From positions 1 to 43,973 of the forward strand of contig MU271534.1 in assembly GCA_021432655.1 (NCBI GenBank): a stretch of 43,973 nt of DNA, given 5' to 3'. This stretch comes from Atractiella rhizophila (lineage: Eukaryota). This document shows, in pieces, positions 7,073 through 34,201 of this stretch. The notes below the pieces were generated by a model. It did no database searches. It was not told where the DNA came from and was given only the letters and a program-made list of their open reading frames with translations. The translations under genes were made by a program, and so were the position numbers. Each line of letters opens with the position of its first letter. Positions within the stretch are counted from its first letter, which is position 1.

Positions 7073-11195
<4,123 letters not shown>

Positions 11196-25470: not shown

Positions 25471-27047
25471 CTTTGAACTGGACGCTAAGCCAACAATTGT
25501 ATTCAGCTTGCAAACTTCAGGATTCGGAAGTCGGTTTATTGCGGATTGGGCAAAAAATCCCTAGCGTATTTGCATTGTGTCCAACCAATTTGGTTATGAG
25601 AAGCGAGTTAGATGTGAAGGAGAGGAACGCCTTCCATTCTATGTGTCACTCGATTTATTGACATTGAAAATACAGTTTCACCAAATCTTCGTTTCTGTTT
25701 CCAAATGAGCGAATATGATACTCCTAATTCAGACCAGGTCTCTCATGGAACAGTCAGAGGCGTCAATCTTGCTTGGCTCACTACCTTAGCGTACAGCTGA
25801 GCATTAAATCAATAACAATTAAGCGCCGTTCCAGGCATACGTCAAGATCGGGAATTACAGAAGCAGAAGCAGAAGACACAGATGCATGGACCGGATCACA
25901 GCCCACATCAACAGGGCTGAAAGACTATCGCCTGCATGTGCACCCGAATGCTCTTGAAATCGGGACACGCACCAACTTTCGTAAACAATCTAGCAGTACA
26001 AAATCCTTCCGTCTATTCGGGCGTCTGCCATTCCCTTCAGGTCTCAGTCAAGCAACACCGTTGATGAAGCTATGAAGTTCTGGTTCTGTCAATGCTGGAT
26101 CTGACGTACAAAGTTGGCAAATGTGGCACGTGAATAGCCACCTGAAAGTCAATCGCGGTGCACAACACAACCAACGAATTTAAGGGGATATCCCTGGGTC
26201 CCTGACAGGCGAAGAAGTAGGAAAGGGTATCTATTTTGACATTTTTTGCAGAAGAACAGGGGAAAGGTTGTCATTCCAGGTGTGTTTCTTGCGTATTCTT
26301 CAGTCCATTATTATGTTTATGCTCTTTTCTTGCTACTCTTCGCGTTGTCTTCGTGTCCACATGCACACACCAGCAGCGCGCCTTTCGGCTGCAGAAAATA
26401 CCGAAGCTGTGAACCATGAACTTGACGGAGACTAGAGACTGCTACTTCATGCATTATGTCTGTATCAATGATTGGGGTTCCCGCACTCCAAGCAGGATGA
26501 ACGGCACAATGTGAATGTTTATCTGGTAACAGTCGTGTTTGGCCATGTGAAGGGATGCTAACGTACAAGTGTTCCCGAGACAGGAGCCTCGCCTGTTCCG
26601 AAGGGCTTTTGGTCATTCTTACAGCCCTATATCATGAGAGAATGAAGCAAACGTCTGGACAAGAATCCTTCCTTGAACTGTTTGAACAGCAAGATTTTGC
26701 TTAAACTGCACTCCGTCTAACAGATTGAAGTACACATCCATCACCTCGTCGTACATTTTGCATATGTCTCAGTGTAGTTTTGCCGCATTAGCATTGTCCT
26801 TGCCGGTTCCTGCTTTCTTCCTCCCTGCTTGATACTAGCTACTTCGCGCAGTATGCTTCGGCCAGGGCATCCCTGTCCGACTGAGGTTAGATAAAGCGGA
26901 AAGTGGCCAAACAAGCTCTGGGTTAGACGAAGTGGTAACGGTCTTTTGATAACAAGTTAAATTTTATTTCTTTAGGACCCACACCACGACGAGAAGGATC
27001 ATACTCATTCATTGACAAAGTTCTCGTCTGTATTCAGAAACAAGACA

Positions 27048-28066
27048 ATGTCCAACGCCACCTACCGCATCGTCTTCTTCCTCTCCACAGCCGGACAGGA
27101 CCCCTCTGAAGTCTCGATTCCTTGGAAATACCTCACCTCTCAAGGAGTTCAAGTGGAATTTGCGACCGAAGATGGAAAGCCAGCGACATGCGACCAACGG
27201 ATGATCAATGGACTTTTGGCCGTCTTGATGGTTTGCAGTCCATTTTATGGTTTTCTGCAGGACGCTAAGGAGACGAATCATAAAAGGGGGCGACAGCTGA
27301 AGCCAAGCGAGCACACGCCGAACTGGTCCAGACCGAAGCATGGCAGCACCCGCATTCGTGGACCTCCCCAACCTTCCAAGAAGACCTGAAACAATATGAC
27401 GGCATCCTGCTACCTGGAGGACACGACAAAGGCATGCGTCAATACCTTGAGTCGACCTCCCTCCAAAAACTGCTCGCCGATTTTTTCCCACTTTCTTCTC
27501 GCTCCGGAAGTGACAAGAAGGTCGTGGCAGCGATCTGTCATGGTGTCCTCGCGCTCGCTCGCTCCAAGAAGGGAGACAAAAGCGTACTCGCGATTAACGA
27601 GGGAGTAGAGACGACTACCCTACCTGTACATTTGGAAAGGTTCGTCGTACCTCACCCCGGATACATATCGCAAGCTGAAGATTGTGCATGGTGGAACCCA
27701 CAGATTCGCTTACGTTGTCACTGCTCCCTTCCTCGGCAAGTACTACAGGACATATGACGCATATTGTGCCACGGAGGTAATTGCACATCGCTCATCTTTC
27801 TCCCTGCGTTGACATACATGGAAGGTTCAATCATTGCTCGCCAAACCCTCCCTTTACAAAAGAGGTGGTTTTTTCGATACCCGTCCTTTCGTTGTGGTGG
27901 ATAAGAAGTCAGTATTCCCTTCCTCACACACCCCCCTATCGCTGATGTCCTGACATCCTGATGGGATAGCCACTATTATGTTTCTGCGAGGTTTCCGGGA
28001 GACGCGCAAAAGTTCGCGGAGAACTTTTTACAGCTGTTGAAGGAAGCGAGGGCTGTTTCTGCATGA
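27048..28066 (+). CDS. DJ-1/PfpI (class I glutamine amidotransferase-like) protein; 5 exons
   Basis: GQDPSEVSIPW, VEFATEDGKPA, YDGILLPGGHDKGMRQYLES, VAAICHGVLALAR, YYRTY and YVSARFPGDAQKFA; stop at 28064-28066. Confidence 0.9.
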
Positions 28067-28290
28067 AACTGGCATGTGGCGTCCAGAACTGAGCCAGAGC
28101 ATCATCCGATGTTTAATTTATTTTGATATTAGTATCCAGATACCTTGGTTACTTGATTCCCTTGTTTTGACCTTATGAGGGATTCTTTGCAATTCATGCT
28201 TCATAAACATACATTCGACAGTGGCAAGGCATATCAGCTATGATTTCTGCGATTGAACACGATAGGATCGAAATAAATAGGGAGAACAGA

Positions 28291-31200
28291 TCACTCAACC
28301 TTCGTAGCATCCTCATCAAGCTCATCTTTATCCTCGTTCGGAGCTCGACCTCCCTTCTCATCTCCGCTTCCTCCATTGAATGAAATTTCATCTTCCGAAT
28401 AAAAAAACTCTTCAGGCTTGTCAAGTTCTTTCTGTTTCTCCTTCTTCTTTTCCTCCACCTTTTTTGCAGGTTCAACCACCACGTTGTCTTCTGCACCAGG
28501 ATCATTAGAACTGGAATTGAAAGCAGTAGGAGGAGGAGGAGCCGAGGGACCGTTGGTAGAGCTTCCAGGAAGTTGTATCGTCGACATGTTTTGTACCTGT
28601 GCCTCTGGTCGTGGATGCTTTGGTGGTCTTCCTCGCTTCCGCGGTGGGTCTCCAGGCTGTCGACGAGTGTATGGACGTTTCTGCTTCGGAGCTGGTTGAG
28701 CCGTCGTCGTGTCGAGCGCTGCGGAAGGTTTAGATGTAACTTCCGCTTTGGGAAGAATCTGTTGAGGAGGAGATGTAGGTTTCGGTTTAGAGGAATGGGA
28801 GAAGTCATCCGCTCCGGACGAAGTAGGTGGAGCGAAAAAGGATTGGCGGCCGAGGGAGTTTTGGGATATGGCTAATAATGCACAAAACTGGTTAGAAGGA
28901 ATGATTTGGAGCTCGAGGAGCAAGCATACAACAGTCGATGCAAAGGTTATCCCGGTGCTGAGGGGCTTGGCGACAATTGGTACAAAGCTCCCGTTGACCC
29001 TCCGTGTCACCGCCAGACGGATTAATAGCCAGCATATACCCGGAAGGTGGAGGAGGGTACAAAGCAGGGGCACCTGCACGATTAGAGAGTTTAATCATCC
29101 CAAAATAAAAGAGGGCAGGAATAAACGTACCCATTGTAGCCCCTCCAGTCCCCAGTTGTTGTTGCTTCTTTTTTTTGGAAGACGTTGAAGCTTGGGGTGA
29201 AGAAATAGGGGCAGCGGATGAAGGGTCTTGGTTTGGAGCGAGAGGAGGGGAACATAATTGAGGTTGTGATTGTACTTCCGTTCGAGGAGACGACTGTTGG
29301 GCGGCGGCAGGAGATGCTCGAACTGGAGCAGGAGAAGTGGTTTGATCTTCAGGAAGAGGGGCCGTTTGAGAAGGGGGAGAGTCTAGAACCGGGGGGGGAG
29401 AGAACTGTGGAGGAGGAAGTTTCTCACGTGGTGAATAAAACATTTCCTGACCCGCAGCTGGTGATGCATCGCCTTGTTCGAAGTTGGATTCAAAGTTTGG
29501 CTCTCGCAATTGGGAATGATGCTGAGGGAGAACAGCATGAGGAGGAGGTTGAGGATGAGGATAATGAGGCATGTATGTTGCCCCATTATGAGGAGGATAT
29601 TGGGCCATGGGTGCCGAACCCAACAAAAGCTCGCCGTTTCCTTTCTCGGAGTGATCCCTCCTCCTAGGATGGAAGCGATAGTCGGGATGCTTGATCTTGT
29701 GAATCTTCTTCTGCTCCTCCGCAATTTCGTGATACGGTGCCCTATCTTCGTCTGTCATCTTCTTCCAGATCTTGGATGCTTCCTTCGTTATTTGCTTGGA
29801 ATTGATCAACCCCATTGCCTTTGCCTCTTGTCTAGCCACTCGATAATGCTTCAGAAAGACAACCCAGACATTATCCGGTCTGTTGATGTGCCCTGGACTC
29901 GTCTGGCGCTGATGCCTTTTCCTCGGCCTCACCGCACTCGATCCAACCGAGGACGACATTTGCTGAGCTGAATCGGCAGGTGGATAAGGAGATGCGGATT
30001 TATCCTCTTCCACTTCTCCTTCCATCGCAGGATTAATGACTGTGTTATCTGCCAATGTATTGTCTTCGTTTCGGATCAAGAGATCTCGTTCCTGCATCGT
30101 AGGAGGACGAGGAAGAGGGGGTGTCGGAATCCGTTCTTCTTCCGATCCTTCCGGTCGAGACTCTTTCGCCTCTCTTCCCCCTCCTCTCCCTCTTCCACGT
30201 CCCCTTCCCCTCCCTCTTCCTCTCGTTGGCTTCGGCGCAGGCAGGAGTTCTTGAAAGCGTGGATCTATGAATCCACCGACTGGATGACCAAGAATTGGAA
30301 TCTGAGTACCAGGAGGAAGGGTTCCCACAGGTCGCCCGTCGCGGGTATAGAGGACTTGATCGTGAGGTCCAATGGGGAGAGGAAAATGTGGCATGTGAGG
30401 ATGTTGCACGATAGACGGGCGACGTCCATCTATGAAAGGAGGTGGACCATGACCGGGATGCCCCATTTGATACTCGTTGAAGGGATGATGGGGGATGTGA
30501 CGTCCTTCGTCTACATCCATTCGATGGGAAGACGAGGGACGATCTGACGGACCGGGAGTGTCGCGAATTGGGATGGGATCCTGTTGAGTGTTGCTCACTC
30601 GAGGTCGTTTCGAAAAGGGTTTTTGGTCCTCCTCTTCGTCGACGGTCATATCAATCACAACTCTTTCGTCATCTTCGAGACCGTCTCGACTTCGTTGTCT
30701 TTTGGAATGTGATGCTCGGGAAGGGTGTCCGTATGGAACAGGGAATCCAGGAGGAACCTATGTCCCAGATCAATATGTCGCCTAAAACCTATGGTGAAAA
30801 GGCGAAATATATACGTAGAGGGGATGGCCAGGCGGCGGACCATGGACGTAACCACCAGGAGGAGGATGTATAGGCATCATCGCGGCCATGGGAGGACTTG
30901 GATGTTGAGGATGAGCGAATGGAGGTCCATGGATGCTTCCCATTCGAGATCTCTCTCTCTCGCGTTCTGCTGCGAGGGCTCGCTCTTCCTTATTGCGTGG
31001 CACCTTATATGCGTCCCCTCCAGCTTTTTGACCTGGAAGTTGAGGTTTATACCCCTTCTCCGTGCCAAACATCGCCGTACTCCCAACTTCCCAGTTCGCT
31101 CGCGCATTCCCATCCGCCCTAACCTTCACGTGCCTCTCTCCTCCGTCTTCCCTCCCGTCCATCGAAAAGACTGTCATCAACGCGGGCGGTCTCTTCGTCG

Positions 31201-32344
31201 AAGGTCCCGAGGAAGCATGTGGCAGAACCTCATCATAAGCGGACTGCCAATTCTCAACAGCCCTCGCCTTACTCTTATGTTGACCTCTCGAGTTAGACCC
31301 ATCCTTCCTCGATCGCGTTGACTGATCTTCAAAAACTCTCGGACGCTGTTCATGGGGATCCACAATCATCTCCTCTCCATCTGATCCCACCCCCCCTTTT
31401 GCAACATCCACTCGAAAAGCAGGCTTCTTGACTTGATTCATATACTCCGCCTGCCTTCTCCTCCGCTCCTCAGCTTCCCCAGTCCTCCAATCTACCCCGG
31501 CCGAATTCCGAATGGCGTTCGTAGCCGGTGGTCCACCGTAGAAAGACTTCATGATGCTCATGTGACCGCCGAGGTCTTGACGCCAGACGTTCATCATCCA
31601 CTGATCCTTATGAATATCGGTGAGAGGAACAACGTTGTCGCGTTCGTATTGGTATGTGATGAGGTGATAGATCGTGTCCATCGTTTTGAATTCGAGGTGG
31701 CGCCTGACGAAAGGAGGTGTCTGAGAGAGGGATGTCCACGATTGACAACAGCGCGCTAACATTAGCGGATACGTGATTTCGGTGCTTTCTGACCTTTTCA
31801 TGCCCAGAGAATTGTGAGCGACTCAAGGACAGTCGCAAAGGAAAGAAACGAACCAAACGATTCCATCTTCAAATTCAGGGATACCAGAAGGACCTTTGAA
31901 CCTTTCGCCGAGTGAGTCACGTCGAACATGTTAGGAGAGAAAGACGAACACCCAAGTATTACCAGGACTCGTTACACGATACCTCGCGTCTCCCAACTTC
32001 ATCAAAAACTCAATCACGGCTGTATTCATCAGAGGGAGCTTTCCCAAGTGAGCAGCATGCACGACGAGCATGGCACATTCTTCCGTATCAACTTTTCTGG
32101 TAGCAGAGAATTCACATCAATCCTGCACTGAGCGCGGGAACGTGGGAAGTTAGGAAGCGCACCCAAACCAAGTGCTCTTCACGTCTTCGTTGAAAATTTT
32201 CTTGCCATCAGGCAGGGTCAGAAGTGGAGCGTTCGGATCGTGCTCGTCACTCAATGGTGCATGTTGTTCCGGTTGCTGAGCATGTTGAGGCGGAGGAGGT
32301 CCCCTGATATGAGGACTCTGGTGTGGTTGAGGAGAATGTTCCAT
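28291..32344 (-). CDS. Large multi-domain transcription factor: divergent Gti1/Pac2 (WOPR)-like N-terminus + RG repeat + MATA/SOX-type HMG box + CxxC-x10-CxxC + AT-hook; 7 exons, ~1,200 aa
   Basis: Introns 32162-32097, 31949-31902, 31853-31794, ~30814-30758, ~29130-29073 and ~28929-28872 link ORFs 32150-32386, 30782-31801, 28892-30658 and 28291-29079 in frame. HMG box HINRPDNVWVVFLKHYR...ITKEASKIWKKMTDEDRAPYHEIAEEQKKIHKIKHPDYRFHPRRR (~29657-29895). AT-hook RKRGRPPK (~28618-28642). Confidence 0.8.
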
Positions 32345-34201
32345 CCCACGCAAAAAAAAATACGCGTTTCTCGGGTAGGGAGACAAGGGGGCAGAATTGC
32401 GTTGTTGACAAGGGCGGGTTTATATGAAAACGGACTGAGAACAGCACAACTCAATTTGATATCATCAAACTAAACTTTGCGATCATGCGTTTTACTTTCA
32501 GCTGCTGCGGAGTGAATGGGATCTAAAACTCTGTGTCATTGACTCAATTCAACACTTTGATCGCTTGCACATGCCTGACGGTGACTGGGCAACGATTTTC
32601 TAAATTTATTGAATAGAAAATTCCGCTTTGAATACCTTCTGTCTTCTCCTTTAGCACAATCTGTGTTCCACCTTTAGCGAGATTCTTAGCCATTCCTGGC
32701 AGGACCCTGGACACATGACAGGACCAACTAATACACCTCAATTCACACGTCTTCCTTCAGCTTCCTTGTCTATTTGTGAATCATTTGTAGCCAGGCGCTC
32801 TCACAACGCAACGCTTGAGACAAGTTGAATAGATTTCGCACATTCCAGAAAGATGCAATGACAAAACAAACTTTGGCTGGAAGATAATTAAAGACACTAA
32901 ACGGTTCTAAAAACGCTCAGCATATTAGATCATCCGTAGTGTCAGATTTAAATTACTCATCCATAAATCTGCAGATGCCGGGAACAGAGCCTGATCTTGG
33001 TAGATCTTGGCTTACATGTATACTCTCGGCGCAATCAAACAAATGAAGGTTTGCAAGACAATGGCCATTGATTGAAACTGTGAAAAAAGTGGCACACGTG
33101 CATTCCTATTACTCACCCGTTGAAAGTTTAGACACTTATTCAGGAATAAGCAAAAGGCGAAAATGCCATCTCAGGGAGCTCCTGGAACTGGTCTGCTATT
33201 TAGTTGATAATCAGATTGTAGCGTTTCACGTGATTATATCTGCAGTTACATTCGGAACCTTGTTTTTGTCTGATTGAGTTTCTGCAACTGTGCGTGTACC
33301 TCCCTTCTCGCTCCTGTACATGCGAGCATCCACTCGTCCCCCTTCCTGCGTTCTCACGAGCTTGAGACTTAACCTTCTTCAAATTTACGTGATGAGGAAG
33401 AGGAATTTTCGAATGGTACTGGATTGAAAGTTCCCTCTTCTATCTGTGAGTGATTTCTTGCGCATGAAAAGGACGTTAAGACTCTCCAAGTACTGTATTT
33501 TTCATATGACTGCCGGAGGCTTACCACATGAAGACGCTTTGCTAACCTGTTGGTGTTGCAGTCTTTTGTTGTTAGCATTTTACACTACCTTGCACATTTG
33601 GCCCTACTCTCTCTTTACCTATATATAGCAATGCTGAAACACTTCCTCCTGTCCATATAACACAACACAACGTCCTGCTCTCTGATCCCCCAAGCACCAC
33701 CCGAGGCTGTGCTTTTCTTTGTCTGAGCTCAATGTCAAGCTGCAATATTGTTTTGCAGCAAATACAATCTAACTGTTGCAAACGAAATGCTCACAGGATG
33801 AGCCTGTTTATTCATTTGTTCAGACTCGAGTAAAAGCGGACACATTTTCTTATGACACGGTTGTCCAGTTGCCAACGACTCACGCTCCTTCCTTTCGTAG
33901 TTGTCAGGCAGTTAAAACAATAGCTACAATGCCCTAGTGACTAGGAAGTGGAGGACTGTGCGATTCGGTGTCAACAACAAAGCGAAAGAATGCAACCTGG
34001 AACAAGTCTCGCACGTGCGTTAATGTCGCAAACGCCGCACTATGCCGAAAATACGCATACGTTCCCCGACTTTGACCAGCCACAAGGCTTGAAACTAGAG
34101 AGCGTTCTTTCGTATATTCAGACGGCAACGCCTTTATAAAGGCCATTAGAGCTTCTCCTTCTTCAGAACTCAACCAAGTCCCCTTCAACCTCTCAAGCAA
34201 G

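Follow-up and report, generated by a model that had tools for sequence, protein, structure and literature searches.

An expressed gene of an Atractiella-like fungus joins a SOX-type HMG box to a degenerate WOPR-like domain

A stretch of 43,973 nucleotides (nt) from Atractiella rhizophila (assembly GCA_021432655.1, contig MU271534.1, positions 1 to 43,973), referred to here as the window, carries on its minus strand, at 28291–32344, an expressed gene whose product is a real chimera: a degenerate WOPR-like domain and a SOX-type high-mobility-group (HMG) box in one polypeptide, a combination seen in one lineage so far. Aligned contigs from public sequencing runs showed that this region is one seven-exon gene with a single spliced transcript and a single reading frame. 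In fungi, WOPR proteins act as master switches that control morphology and virulence, and a diverged WOPR-like domain joined to an unrelated DNA-binding domain suggests that this fold lends itself to recruitment by other factors. On balance, and by a slim lead over an even chance, we take the gene to encode a nuclear regulator of an Atractiella-like fungus in which the SOX-type HMG box would read DNA and the diverged WOPR head would have no canonical DNA binding. A natural variant of this kind, devoid of the conserved basic residues, would be useful for asking what the fold itself needs. The practical reach of the finding is limited to a single little-studied lineage (Atractiellomycetes) and to a gene whose function is predicted from its sequence.

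A single seven-exon gene

The coding region is complete and runs from an ATG at 32344–32342 to a stop codon at 28293–28291, as established from the sequence itself, its spliced translation and complementary DNA (cDNA) contigs. Both ends coincide exactly with the gene limits proposed by an earlier model-made reading of the letters (the sequence-only reading), and splicing reproduced the N-terminal peptide quoted there. Translation of the spliced minus strand gave a coding sequence of 3708 nt for 1235 amino acids (aa), with the sole stop at its end. Exon 1 (32163–32344; aa 1–60 plus 2 nt) encodes a Pro/His/Gln-rich leader and then the onset of WOPR-like conserved region 1 (CR1), ending in STWFG; exon 2 (31950–32096; aa 61–109) holds the bulk of CR1; exon 3 (31854–31901; aa 110–125) bears FKGPSGIPEFEDGIV, followed by a Trp; and exon 4 (30815–31793; aa 126–452) contains the end of CR1, then a putative conserved region 2 (CR2) and a Gly/Arg/Pro-rich low-complexity part. 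Exon 5 (29131–30757; aa 453–994) carries an Arg-Gly (RG) repeat and the HMG box amid Pro/His-rich low-complexity sequence, exon 6 (28930–29073; aa 995–1042) ends in a four-cysteine motif, and exon 7 (28291–28871; aa 1043–1235 and the stop) includes an AT-hook-like motif and an acidic, lysine-rich tail. All these features, like those given below for this gene, lie on the minus strand.

The transcript was examined by aligning contigs of four public runs (X23, X1, X2 and X5) on positions 27900–32700. X2, recorded as RNA, is a metatranscriptome of roots, and X5 is one of soil; the type of X23 is not on record, and we treat it as cDNA because its contigs lack all six introns. The introns, numbered 1 to 6, measure 66, 48, 60, 57, 57 and 58 nt, have GT..AG borders in all six cases, and were each skipped exactly in contigs of these runs. 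The joints of exons 2 and 3 were present in X23 and X5, with an X5 contig joining exons 4, 3 and 2; contigs of X23 and X2 skip both introns that flank exon 6, and X1 likewise skips intron 6. The joint between exons 1 and 2, seen in X23 and X1, was given as 32097>32166 with CG between, which equals the 66-nt intron 1 plus a single synonymous TTT>TTC change.

Particular weight falls on intron 4 (30758–30814; 57 nt, GTATAT..ACATAG), which separates the WOPR-like exons from the HMG exon and which the sequence-only reading had described as a phase-0 intron within a single transcript. This description was borne out: the intron was skipped exactly, with the frame left open, in three of the four runs (two contigs of X23, one of X1 and one of X2), and X5 has no coverage there. 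The shorter flank of the skip is only 21 nt in the X1 contig and 50 nt in the X2 contig. An X23 contig of 1413 nt covers 30498–30755 and 30813–31791 and, as its equal depth indicates, also spans the skips of introns 3 and 2. Because of this bridging contig, one spliced molecule carries the WOPR-like exons together with the beginning of the HMG exon, in frame. A further X23 contig (29496–30376) is continuous through exon 5, with no internal skip. The junction of exons 4 and 5 is also present in an independently annotated orthologue, KAH8930507.1 (BT69DRAFT_1275401) from Atractiella rhizophila.

Some features of the locus were observed along the way. The lengths of five introns (32097–32162, 31902–31949, 31794–31853, 30758–30814 and 29074–29130) are divisible by three, which places exons 1 to 6 in one genomic frame; introns 1 to 4 contain in-frame stops, and intron 5 contains none, so that its retention would add 19 aa. 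A low-depth X23 contig (depth 7.7) over 32166–32356, in exon 1, differs from the window at 19 of 191 nt; the other X23 contigs are near-identical to it, at a depth of about 420. The divergent contig could come from another allele, from a paralogue or from another organism present in the run. The X1, X2 and X5 contigs are all 3 nt shorter at 29300, an in-frame indel polymorphism in a Pro/Ser-rich region downstream of the HMG box.

The WOPR-like N-terminus

From its profile matches, the N-terminus is probably a remote WOPR homologue, a level of relationship below family-level similarity. The WOPR-like CR1 maps to 31784–32173 (aa 58–129), where it is split by introns 1–3, and was delimited with a profile hidden Markov model and hhalign; CR2 maps to 31646–31735 (aa 146–175, TSLSQTPPFVRRHLEFKTMDTIYHLITYQY) and was placed by global hhalign. 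Reference WOPR sequences were gathered with a degenerate pattern based on the motif WTDGxxWSPSR, which yielded 117 metagenome loci (L002–L118), most of them reading SGIKRWTDG..WSPSRILG. All 32 of the long open reading frames (ORFs) tested from these loci were Gti1_Pac2 (PF09729), with Pfam E values of 1e-43 to 1e-63, and the profile was built from 30 verified domains after L030 and L049, in which the match was split into two stretches, had been left out. As an observation in its own right, WTDGxxWSPSR proved a highly specific means of finding WOPR genes in metagenomes from soil and roots.

Against the 30-sequence profile the spliced N-terminus scored 19.1 bits (E 1.2e-7), a value reached by none of 2000 shuffled sequences, the best of which scored 6.8 bits. 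Profile positions 1–67 aligned to aa 58–129, with 16.5 bits for the CR1 stretch alone, and a weak collinear second match placed positions 156–175 on FVRRHLEFKTMDTIYHLITY; a second WOPR profile gave 12.3 bits. When the same family was compared by local hhalign, the probability was 95.3% (E 2.2e-8) over 75 columns with 24% identity. Global hhalign, which takes in CR2 and places it on GLVKKTiSV..HHLVSYY, gave 93.3% for the entire alignment, in which, as we read it, matches fall on 8 of the 15 invariant or near-invariant CR2 columns. The controls stayed far lower: at most 6.7% among 200 shuffles, 0.8% for the reversed sequence, and a best profile score of 3.5 bits among 669 ORFs of the window. Taken separately, aa 56–110 scored 5.9 bits and aa 108–135 scored 8.9 bits, each reached by none of 500 shuffles. 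The sequence-only reading had proposed a WOPR-like N-terminus with its blocks in WOPR order; the block order thus exceeds chance, and the likeness stands at the level of remote homology.

The domain resembles those of the WOPR (Gti1/Pac2) regulators Wor1, Ryp1, Sge1 and Ros1 (PF09729; structures 4qtj and 4m8b) in being fungal, lying near the N-terminus and presenting CR1 before a putative CR2, and it shares with them G61, G106, S115-G116-I117, D122-G123 and W126-S127-x-S129. For a closer comparison, a column was called conserved when at least 27 of the 30 profile sequences have the same residue; 44 columns qualified, 24 of them within the aligned CR1. Eleven of these 24 are kept (G61, R99, G106, S115, G116, I117, D122, G123, W126, S127 and S129). 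The others read D>C68, L>M70, R>T86, R>A87, E>A98, I>T103, S>P105, F>W109, R>E119, W>F120, T>E121 and P>E128, with one gap. In contrast to the regulators, the RR of the conserved vsrRp is TA here, PEFEDG stands for KRWTDG and WSEST for WSPSR, the last Arg of which is unaligned. The Gly, Trp and Ser positions survive, and four of the five conserved CR1 arginines are gone. The protein departs from the family further in its fusion to an HMG box, in giving no match to the Pfam Gti1_Pac2 model on exon pieces or read-through, and in a nearly absent linker between CR1 and CR2, which amounts to a few residues only (aa ~140–145) against 25–100 aa in WOPR proteins according to PMC4567300.

According to PMC13729134, a putative protein kinase A (PKA) motif, KRWTDG, is highly conserved, and the key minor-groove contact of WOPR is a deeply penetrating arginine. 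Canonical WOPR DNA binding is doubtful here because most of the conserved basic residues are lost, and we infer from the residue pattern a head that would keep the fold and would have lost or altered canonical WOPR DNA binding.

Several results weigh against this assignment. Pfam Gti1_Pac2 gave no match at E<=10 on any of the six exon translations, and a read-through of exons 1–4 (with X at the four intron stops) matched no Pfam family at all. A search of PDB sequences with exon 2 and the start of exon 4 returned no match at E<=10; the PDB includes the WOPR structures 4qtj and 4qtk (Wor1) and 4m8b (YHR177W), and neither the exon pieces nor the read-through matched Wor1 4qtj or YHR177W 4m8b. 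The sole PDB match of the read-through was a lactonase beta-propeller repeat at GPSGIPEFEDGIVW (E 0.038), and AlphaFold2 run on the single read-through sequence gave a mean predicted local distance difference test (pLDDT) score of 36.3 and a predicted template modelling (pTM) score of 0.25, which lends no structural support. Taken alone, aa 140–200 (CR2) scored 2.9 bits, barely above chance, with one of 500 shuffles reaching it. The total of 19.1 bits is below the Pfam gathering score of 23.6, though the two models differ, the profile members were picked through the motif WTDGxxWSPSR, and the region was first singled out for looking WOPR-like, which introduces a selection bias. The proposed loss of DNA binding is argued from residue identities alone, and no orthologue displays the N-terminal domain, so that in sequence searches the fusion appears in this organism alone. 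The tests with exon pieces and read-through are insensitive because introns 1–3 cut through the conserved blocks. An ESM Atlas search with exon 2 and the start of exon 4 gave no usable match, the best score being 0.78.

The motif GPSGIPEFEDGIVW (exon 3, 31856–31900) resembles the blade motif of the lactonase 2qc5, in four repeats, and, because it matches this propeller protein, is not in itself specific to WOPR.

HMG box and accessory motifs

The HMG box lies at 29675–29884 (aa 744–813) and was identified as SOX/SRY/MATA-like by Pfam PF00505 and by a search of PDB sequences. The Pfam match clears its cut-off of 25.4 bits with a score of 40.7 (E 3.3e-10) and extends over profile positions 2–69 of 69, corresponding to residues 292–361 of exon 5. 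Among 31 PDB sequence matches at E<=0.01, SOX-9, SOX-11 and SOX-2 were best (E ~1e-8), and SRY (alone or in fusion constructs), capicua, HBP1 and LEF-1 were also found; the sole HMGB1 entry among them is an SRY/HMGB1 chimera. By these sequence matches the box is of the sequence-specific class, as the sequence-only reading had supposed, and nearer to SOX/SRY/TCF than to HMGB/UBF.

For comparison, we considered Ste11, Prf1, Rop1 and Pcc1, sequence-specific fungal HMG factors of the MATA/SOX type. The protein is like them in having a single SOX/SRY-like box within a long low-complexity polypeptide, and unlike them in its WOPR-like head, RG repeat, four-cysteine motif and AT-hook-like motif. With capicua, which has an HMG box and a C1 domain, and with TCF, which combines an HMG box with a cysteine C-clamp, the protein shares a second separate module that may aid DNA recognition. 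It differs from both in the nature of the added modules: a WOPR-like domain some 570 aa ahead of the box and a CxxC-x10-CxxC some 210 aa past it.

The other motifs named in the sequence-only reading were all recovered in the spliced protein. The RG repeat, followed by GGGR, occupies 30182–30223 (aa 631–644); it was located with a regular expression and is kept in KAH8930507.1. The CxxC-x10-CxxC motif, a possible zinc-binding knuckle, was found by its pattern at 28931–28984 (C1025, C1028, C1039 and C1042). It accounts for four of the eight cysteines of the 1235-aa protein, a concentration that argues for a real, if putative, metal site; exon 6, which contains it, matched no Pfam family at E<=10. 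The AT-hook-like RKRGRPPK, recognized by the pattern of its RGRP core, is at 28618–28641 (aa 1120–1127), and its score against Pfam AT_hook (PF02178) was 9.9 bits (E 0.98), below the cut-off of 17.4. At the same site KAH8930507.1 has RKRERLPT, inside a stretch that is otherwise 83% identical, and constraint on the motif is doubtful because its RGRP core is not kept in the sole orthologue. The proposal that the protein carries several minor-groove DNA-binding modules is not supported as worded: most of the basic residues conserved in WOPR are lost, the AT-hook core is absent from the orthologue, and the four-cysteine motif is without a family.

Relatives, competing explanations and neighbourhood

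An exhaustive HMMER search of exon 4 against 1.84 billion representatives returned one protein, KAH8930507.1, from a species placed in Pucciniomycotina, Atractiellomycetes; it is 89% identical to exon 4 from aa 196 on and 83% identical to exon 7. No orthologue beyond Atractiella was found in this search or when exon 5 was compared with longer proteins (none of 7999 candidates matched). Likewise, exon 2 matched none of 14 candidates among longer proteins, and a metagenome scan with the start of exon 4 gave 144 pattern matches, none of which was confirmed. KAH8930507.1 agrees with the gene described here in the junction of exons 4 and 5, the RG repeat and the start of the HMG box. It differs in that its 893-aa model starts at MNVWRQ, just past the WOPR-like domain, and does not include 13 aa of exon 5, HMG helix 3 (34 aa) or the cysteine motif. 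Because the RNA contigs of the window have no skips inside exon 5, this model is probably mis-predicted in part. Standard annotation would overlook such cases: the orthologue model stands without the domain, and Pfam is blind on the exon pieces.

The architecture itself appears unusual, as the sequence-only reading had held. When longer proteins were searched with the WOPR profile, 1949 of 8000 scored candidates reached E<=1e-5; the best 120 of these (455–736 aa), a biased and mostly ascomycete sample, all had PF09729 alone and none had an HMG box. PF09729 had no match in 14 control genomes, which hence contributed no WOPR sequences, and no WOPR–HMG fusion was described in the titles and abstracts of the retrieved papers that mention both. 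In these sequence and literature comparisons, the pairing of a WOPR-like domain with an HMG box was not found among characterised regulators.

In the explanation that we favour, the HMG box (SOX/MATA-type) would be the likeliest element of DNA recognition, binding and bending DNA through the minor groove, with the RG repeat, the AT-hook-like RKRGRPPK and the four-cysteine knuckle as possible basic accessory helpers. Residues 58–175 would form a compact, strongly diverged WOPR (Gti1/Pac2) relative with CR1 and CR2 in the usual order and almost no linker, repurposed as a regulatory or protein-contact module; we infer the roles of the accessory motifs as well as any biological role of the gene. 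An extension of this idea, which we put forward tentatively and regard as rather improbable, is that the gene contains the first WOPR-fold domain outside stand-alone WOPR regulators, captured by an HMG-box factor, where it works either as a regulatory head that does not bind DNA or as an additional DNA reader. In the first case, the Glu at the Thr of the putative PKA site may mimic permanent phosphorylation; in the second, a single protein would recognise composite sites with WOPR and HMG parts. The WOPR fold would then be more modular and evolutionarily plastic than the picture of a domain that is always alone and always DNA-binding.

A full two-headed DNA binder, in which a true WOPR homologue still binds DNA, maybe with altered specificity and on composite WOPR and HMG sites, is unlikely in our judgement. 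Remote WOPR homology is supported by both the profile and hhalign, R99 and the Gly, Ser, Ile, Asp, Gly, Trp and Ser positions around the conserved loop are kept, and HMG boxes are reported to be weak binders on their own and to draw on helper domains, an example in the abstracts of PMC5344332 and PMC13152641 being the HMG box and C1 of capicua. Against this, four of the five conserved CR1 Arg columns and the Lys of KRWTDG are replaced, two of these residues by Glu, and the segment is acidic where the WOPR family is basic, which leaves DNA binding by it putative. The opposite possibility is an HMG factor with an orphan N-terminus, a lineage-specific domain unrelated to WOPR whose motifs arose by chance or convergence. 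The blank results for WOPR from Pfam, PDB sequences and the Atlas on pieces and read-through would agree with it, as would the 13 changed columns among the 24 conserved in CR1, the propeller-blade likeness of the SGI..DG..W motif and the choice of the region by a reader seeking WOPR likeness. We nevertheless doubt it, given calibrated statistics (profile E 1.2e-7, hhalign 95%) that none of the 2000 and 200 shuffles came anywhere close to, three collinear segments that each score above nearly all shuffles, and a match that begins at profile position 1, near the N-terminus of a fungal protein, as in all known WOPR proteins.

The chimera could also be an artefact of two adjacent genes, a WOPR-like one with its stop in intron 4 and an HMG gene that begins at a Met near 30650, joined only by read-through or by a chimeric assembly. 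Retention of intron 4 would place an in-frame stop at 30782, ending the protein past the WOPR-like part, and a Met is available downstream in exon 5; transcripts terminating near 30780 had been named in the sequence-only reading as the sign of two separate genes. None of the contigs listed from the four runs retains intron 4, although minor or rare isoforms could escape contigs. With the exact GT..AG excision of this intron in three runs, including the RNA run X2, the preserved frame, and the independent annotation of the orthologue joining the same exons, we consider two genes highly improbable.

The sequence-only reading had also cast the protein as a chimeric developmental or mating regulator. 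The single-frame chimera of WOPR-like and HMG parts stood; a mating or developmental role is conjectural, and neither STE3 nor a homeodomain gene was found among 128 window ORFs outside the gene (26 of at least 130 aa and 102 of 85–129 aa). A mating-locus setting is therefore not supported, there being no pheromone receptor or homeodomain gene among the scanned ORFs. The lone hint was a PAK/Ste20-like kinase gene at 8917–10663 on the plus strand (PBD E 3.8e-8; Pkinase E 4.8e-37), some 20 kb away from the HMG gene; in certain basidiomycetes, mating loci have STE20 linked to them.

Closer by, a ThiJ/DJ-1/PfpI-like gene (26976–27757, plus strand; E 8.7e-29) runs toward the HMG gene and meets it at its 3' end, the two coding regions lying about 530 nt apart. 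The further neighbours are ordinary and include FAD oxidoreductases, hydrolases, a GHMP kinase, an amino-acid permease and a Hus1-like fragment.

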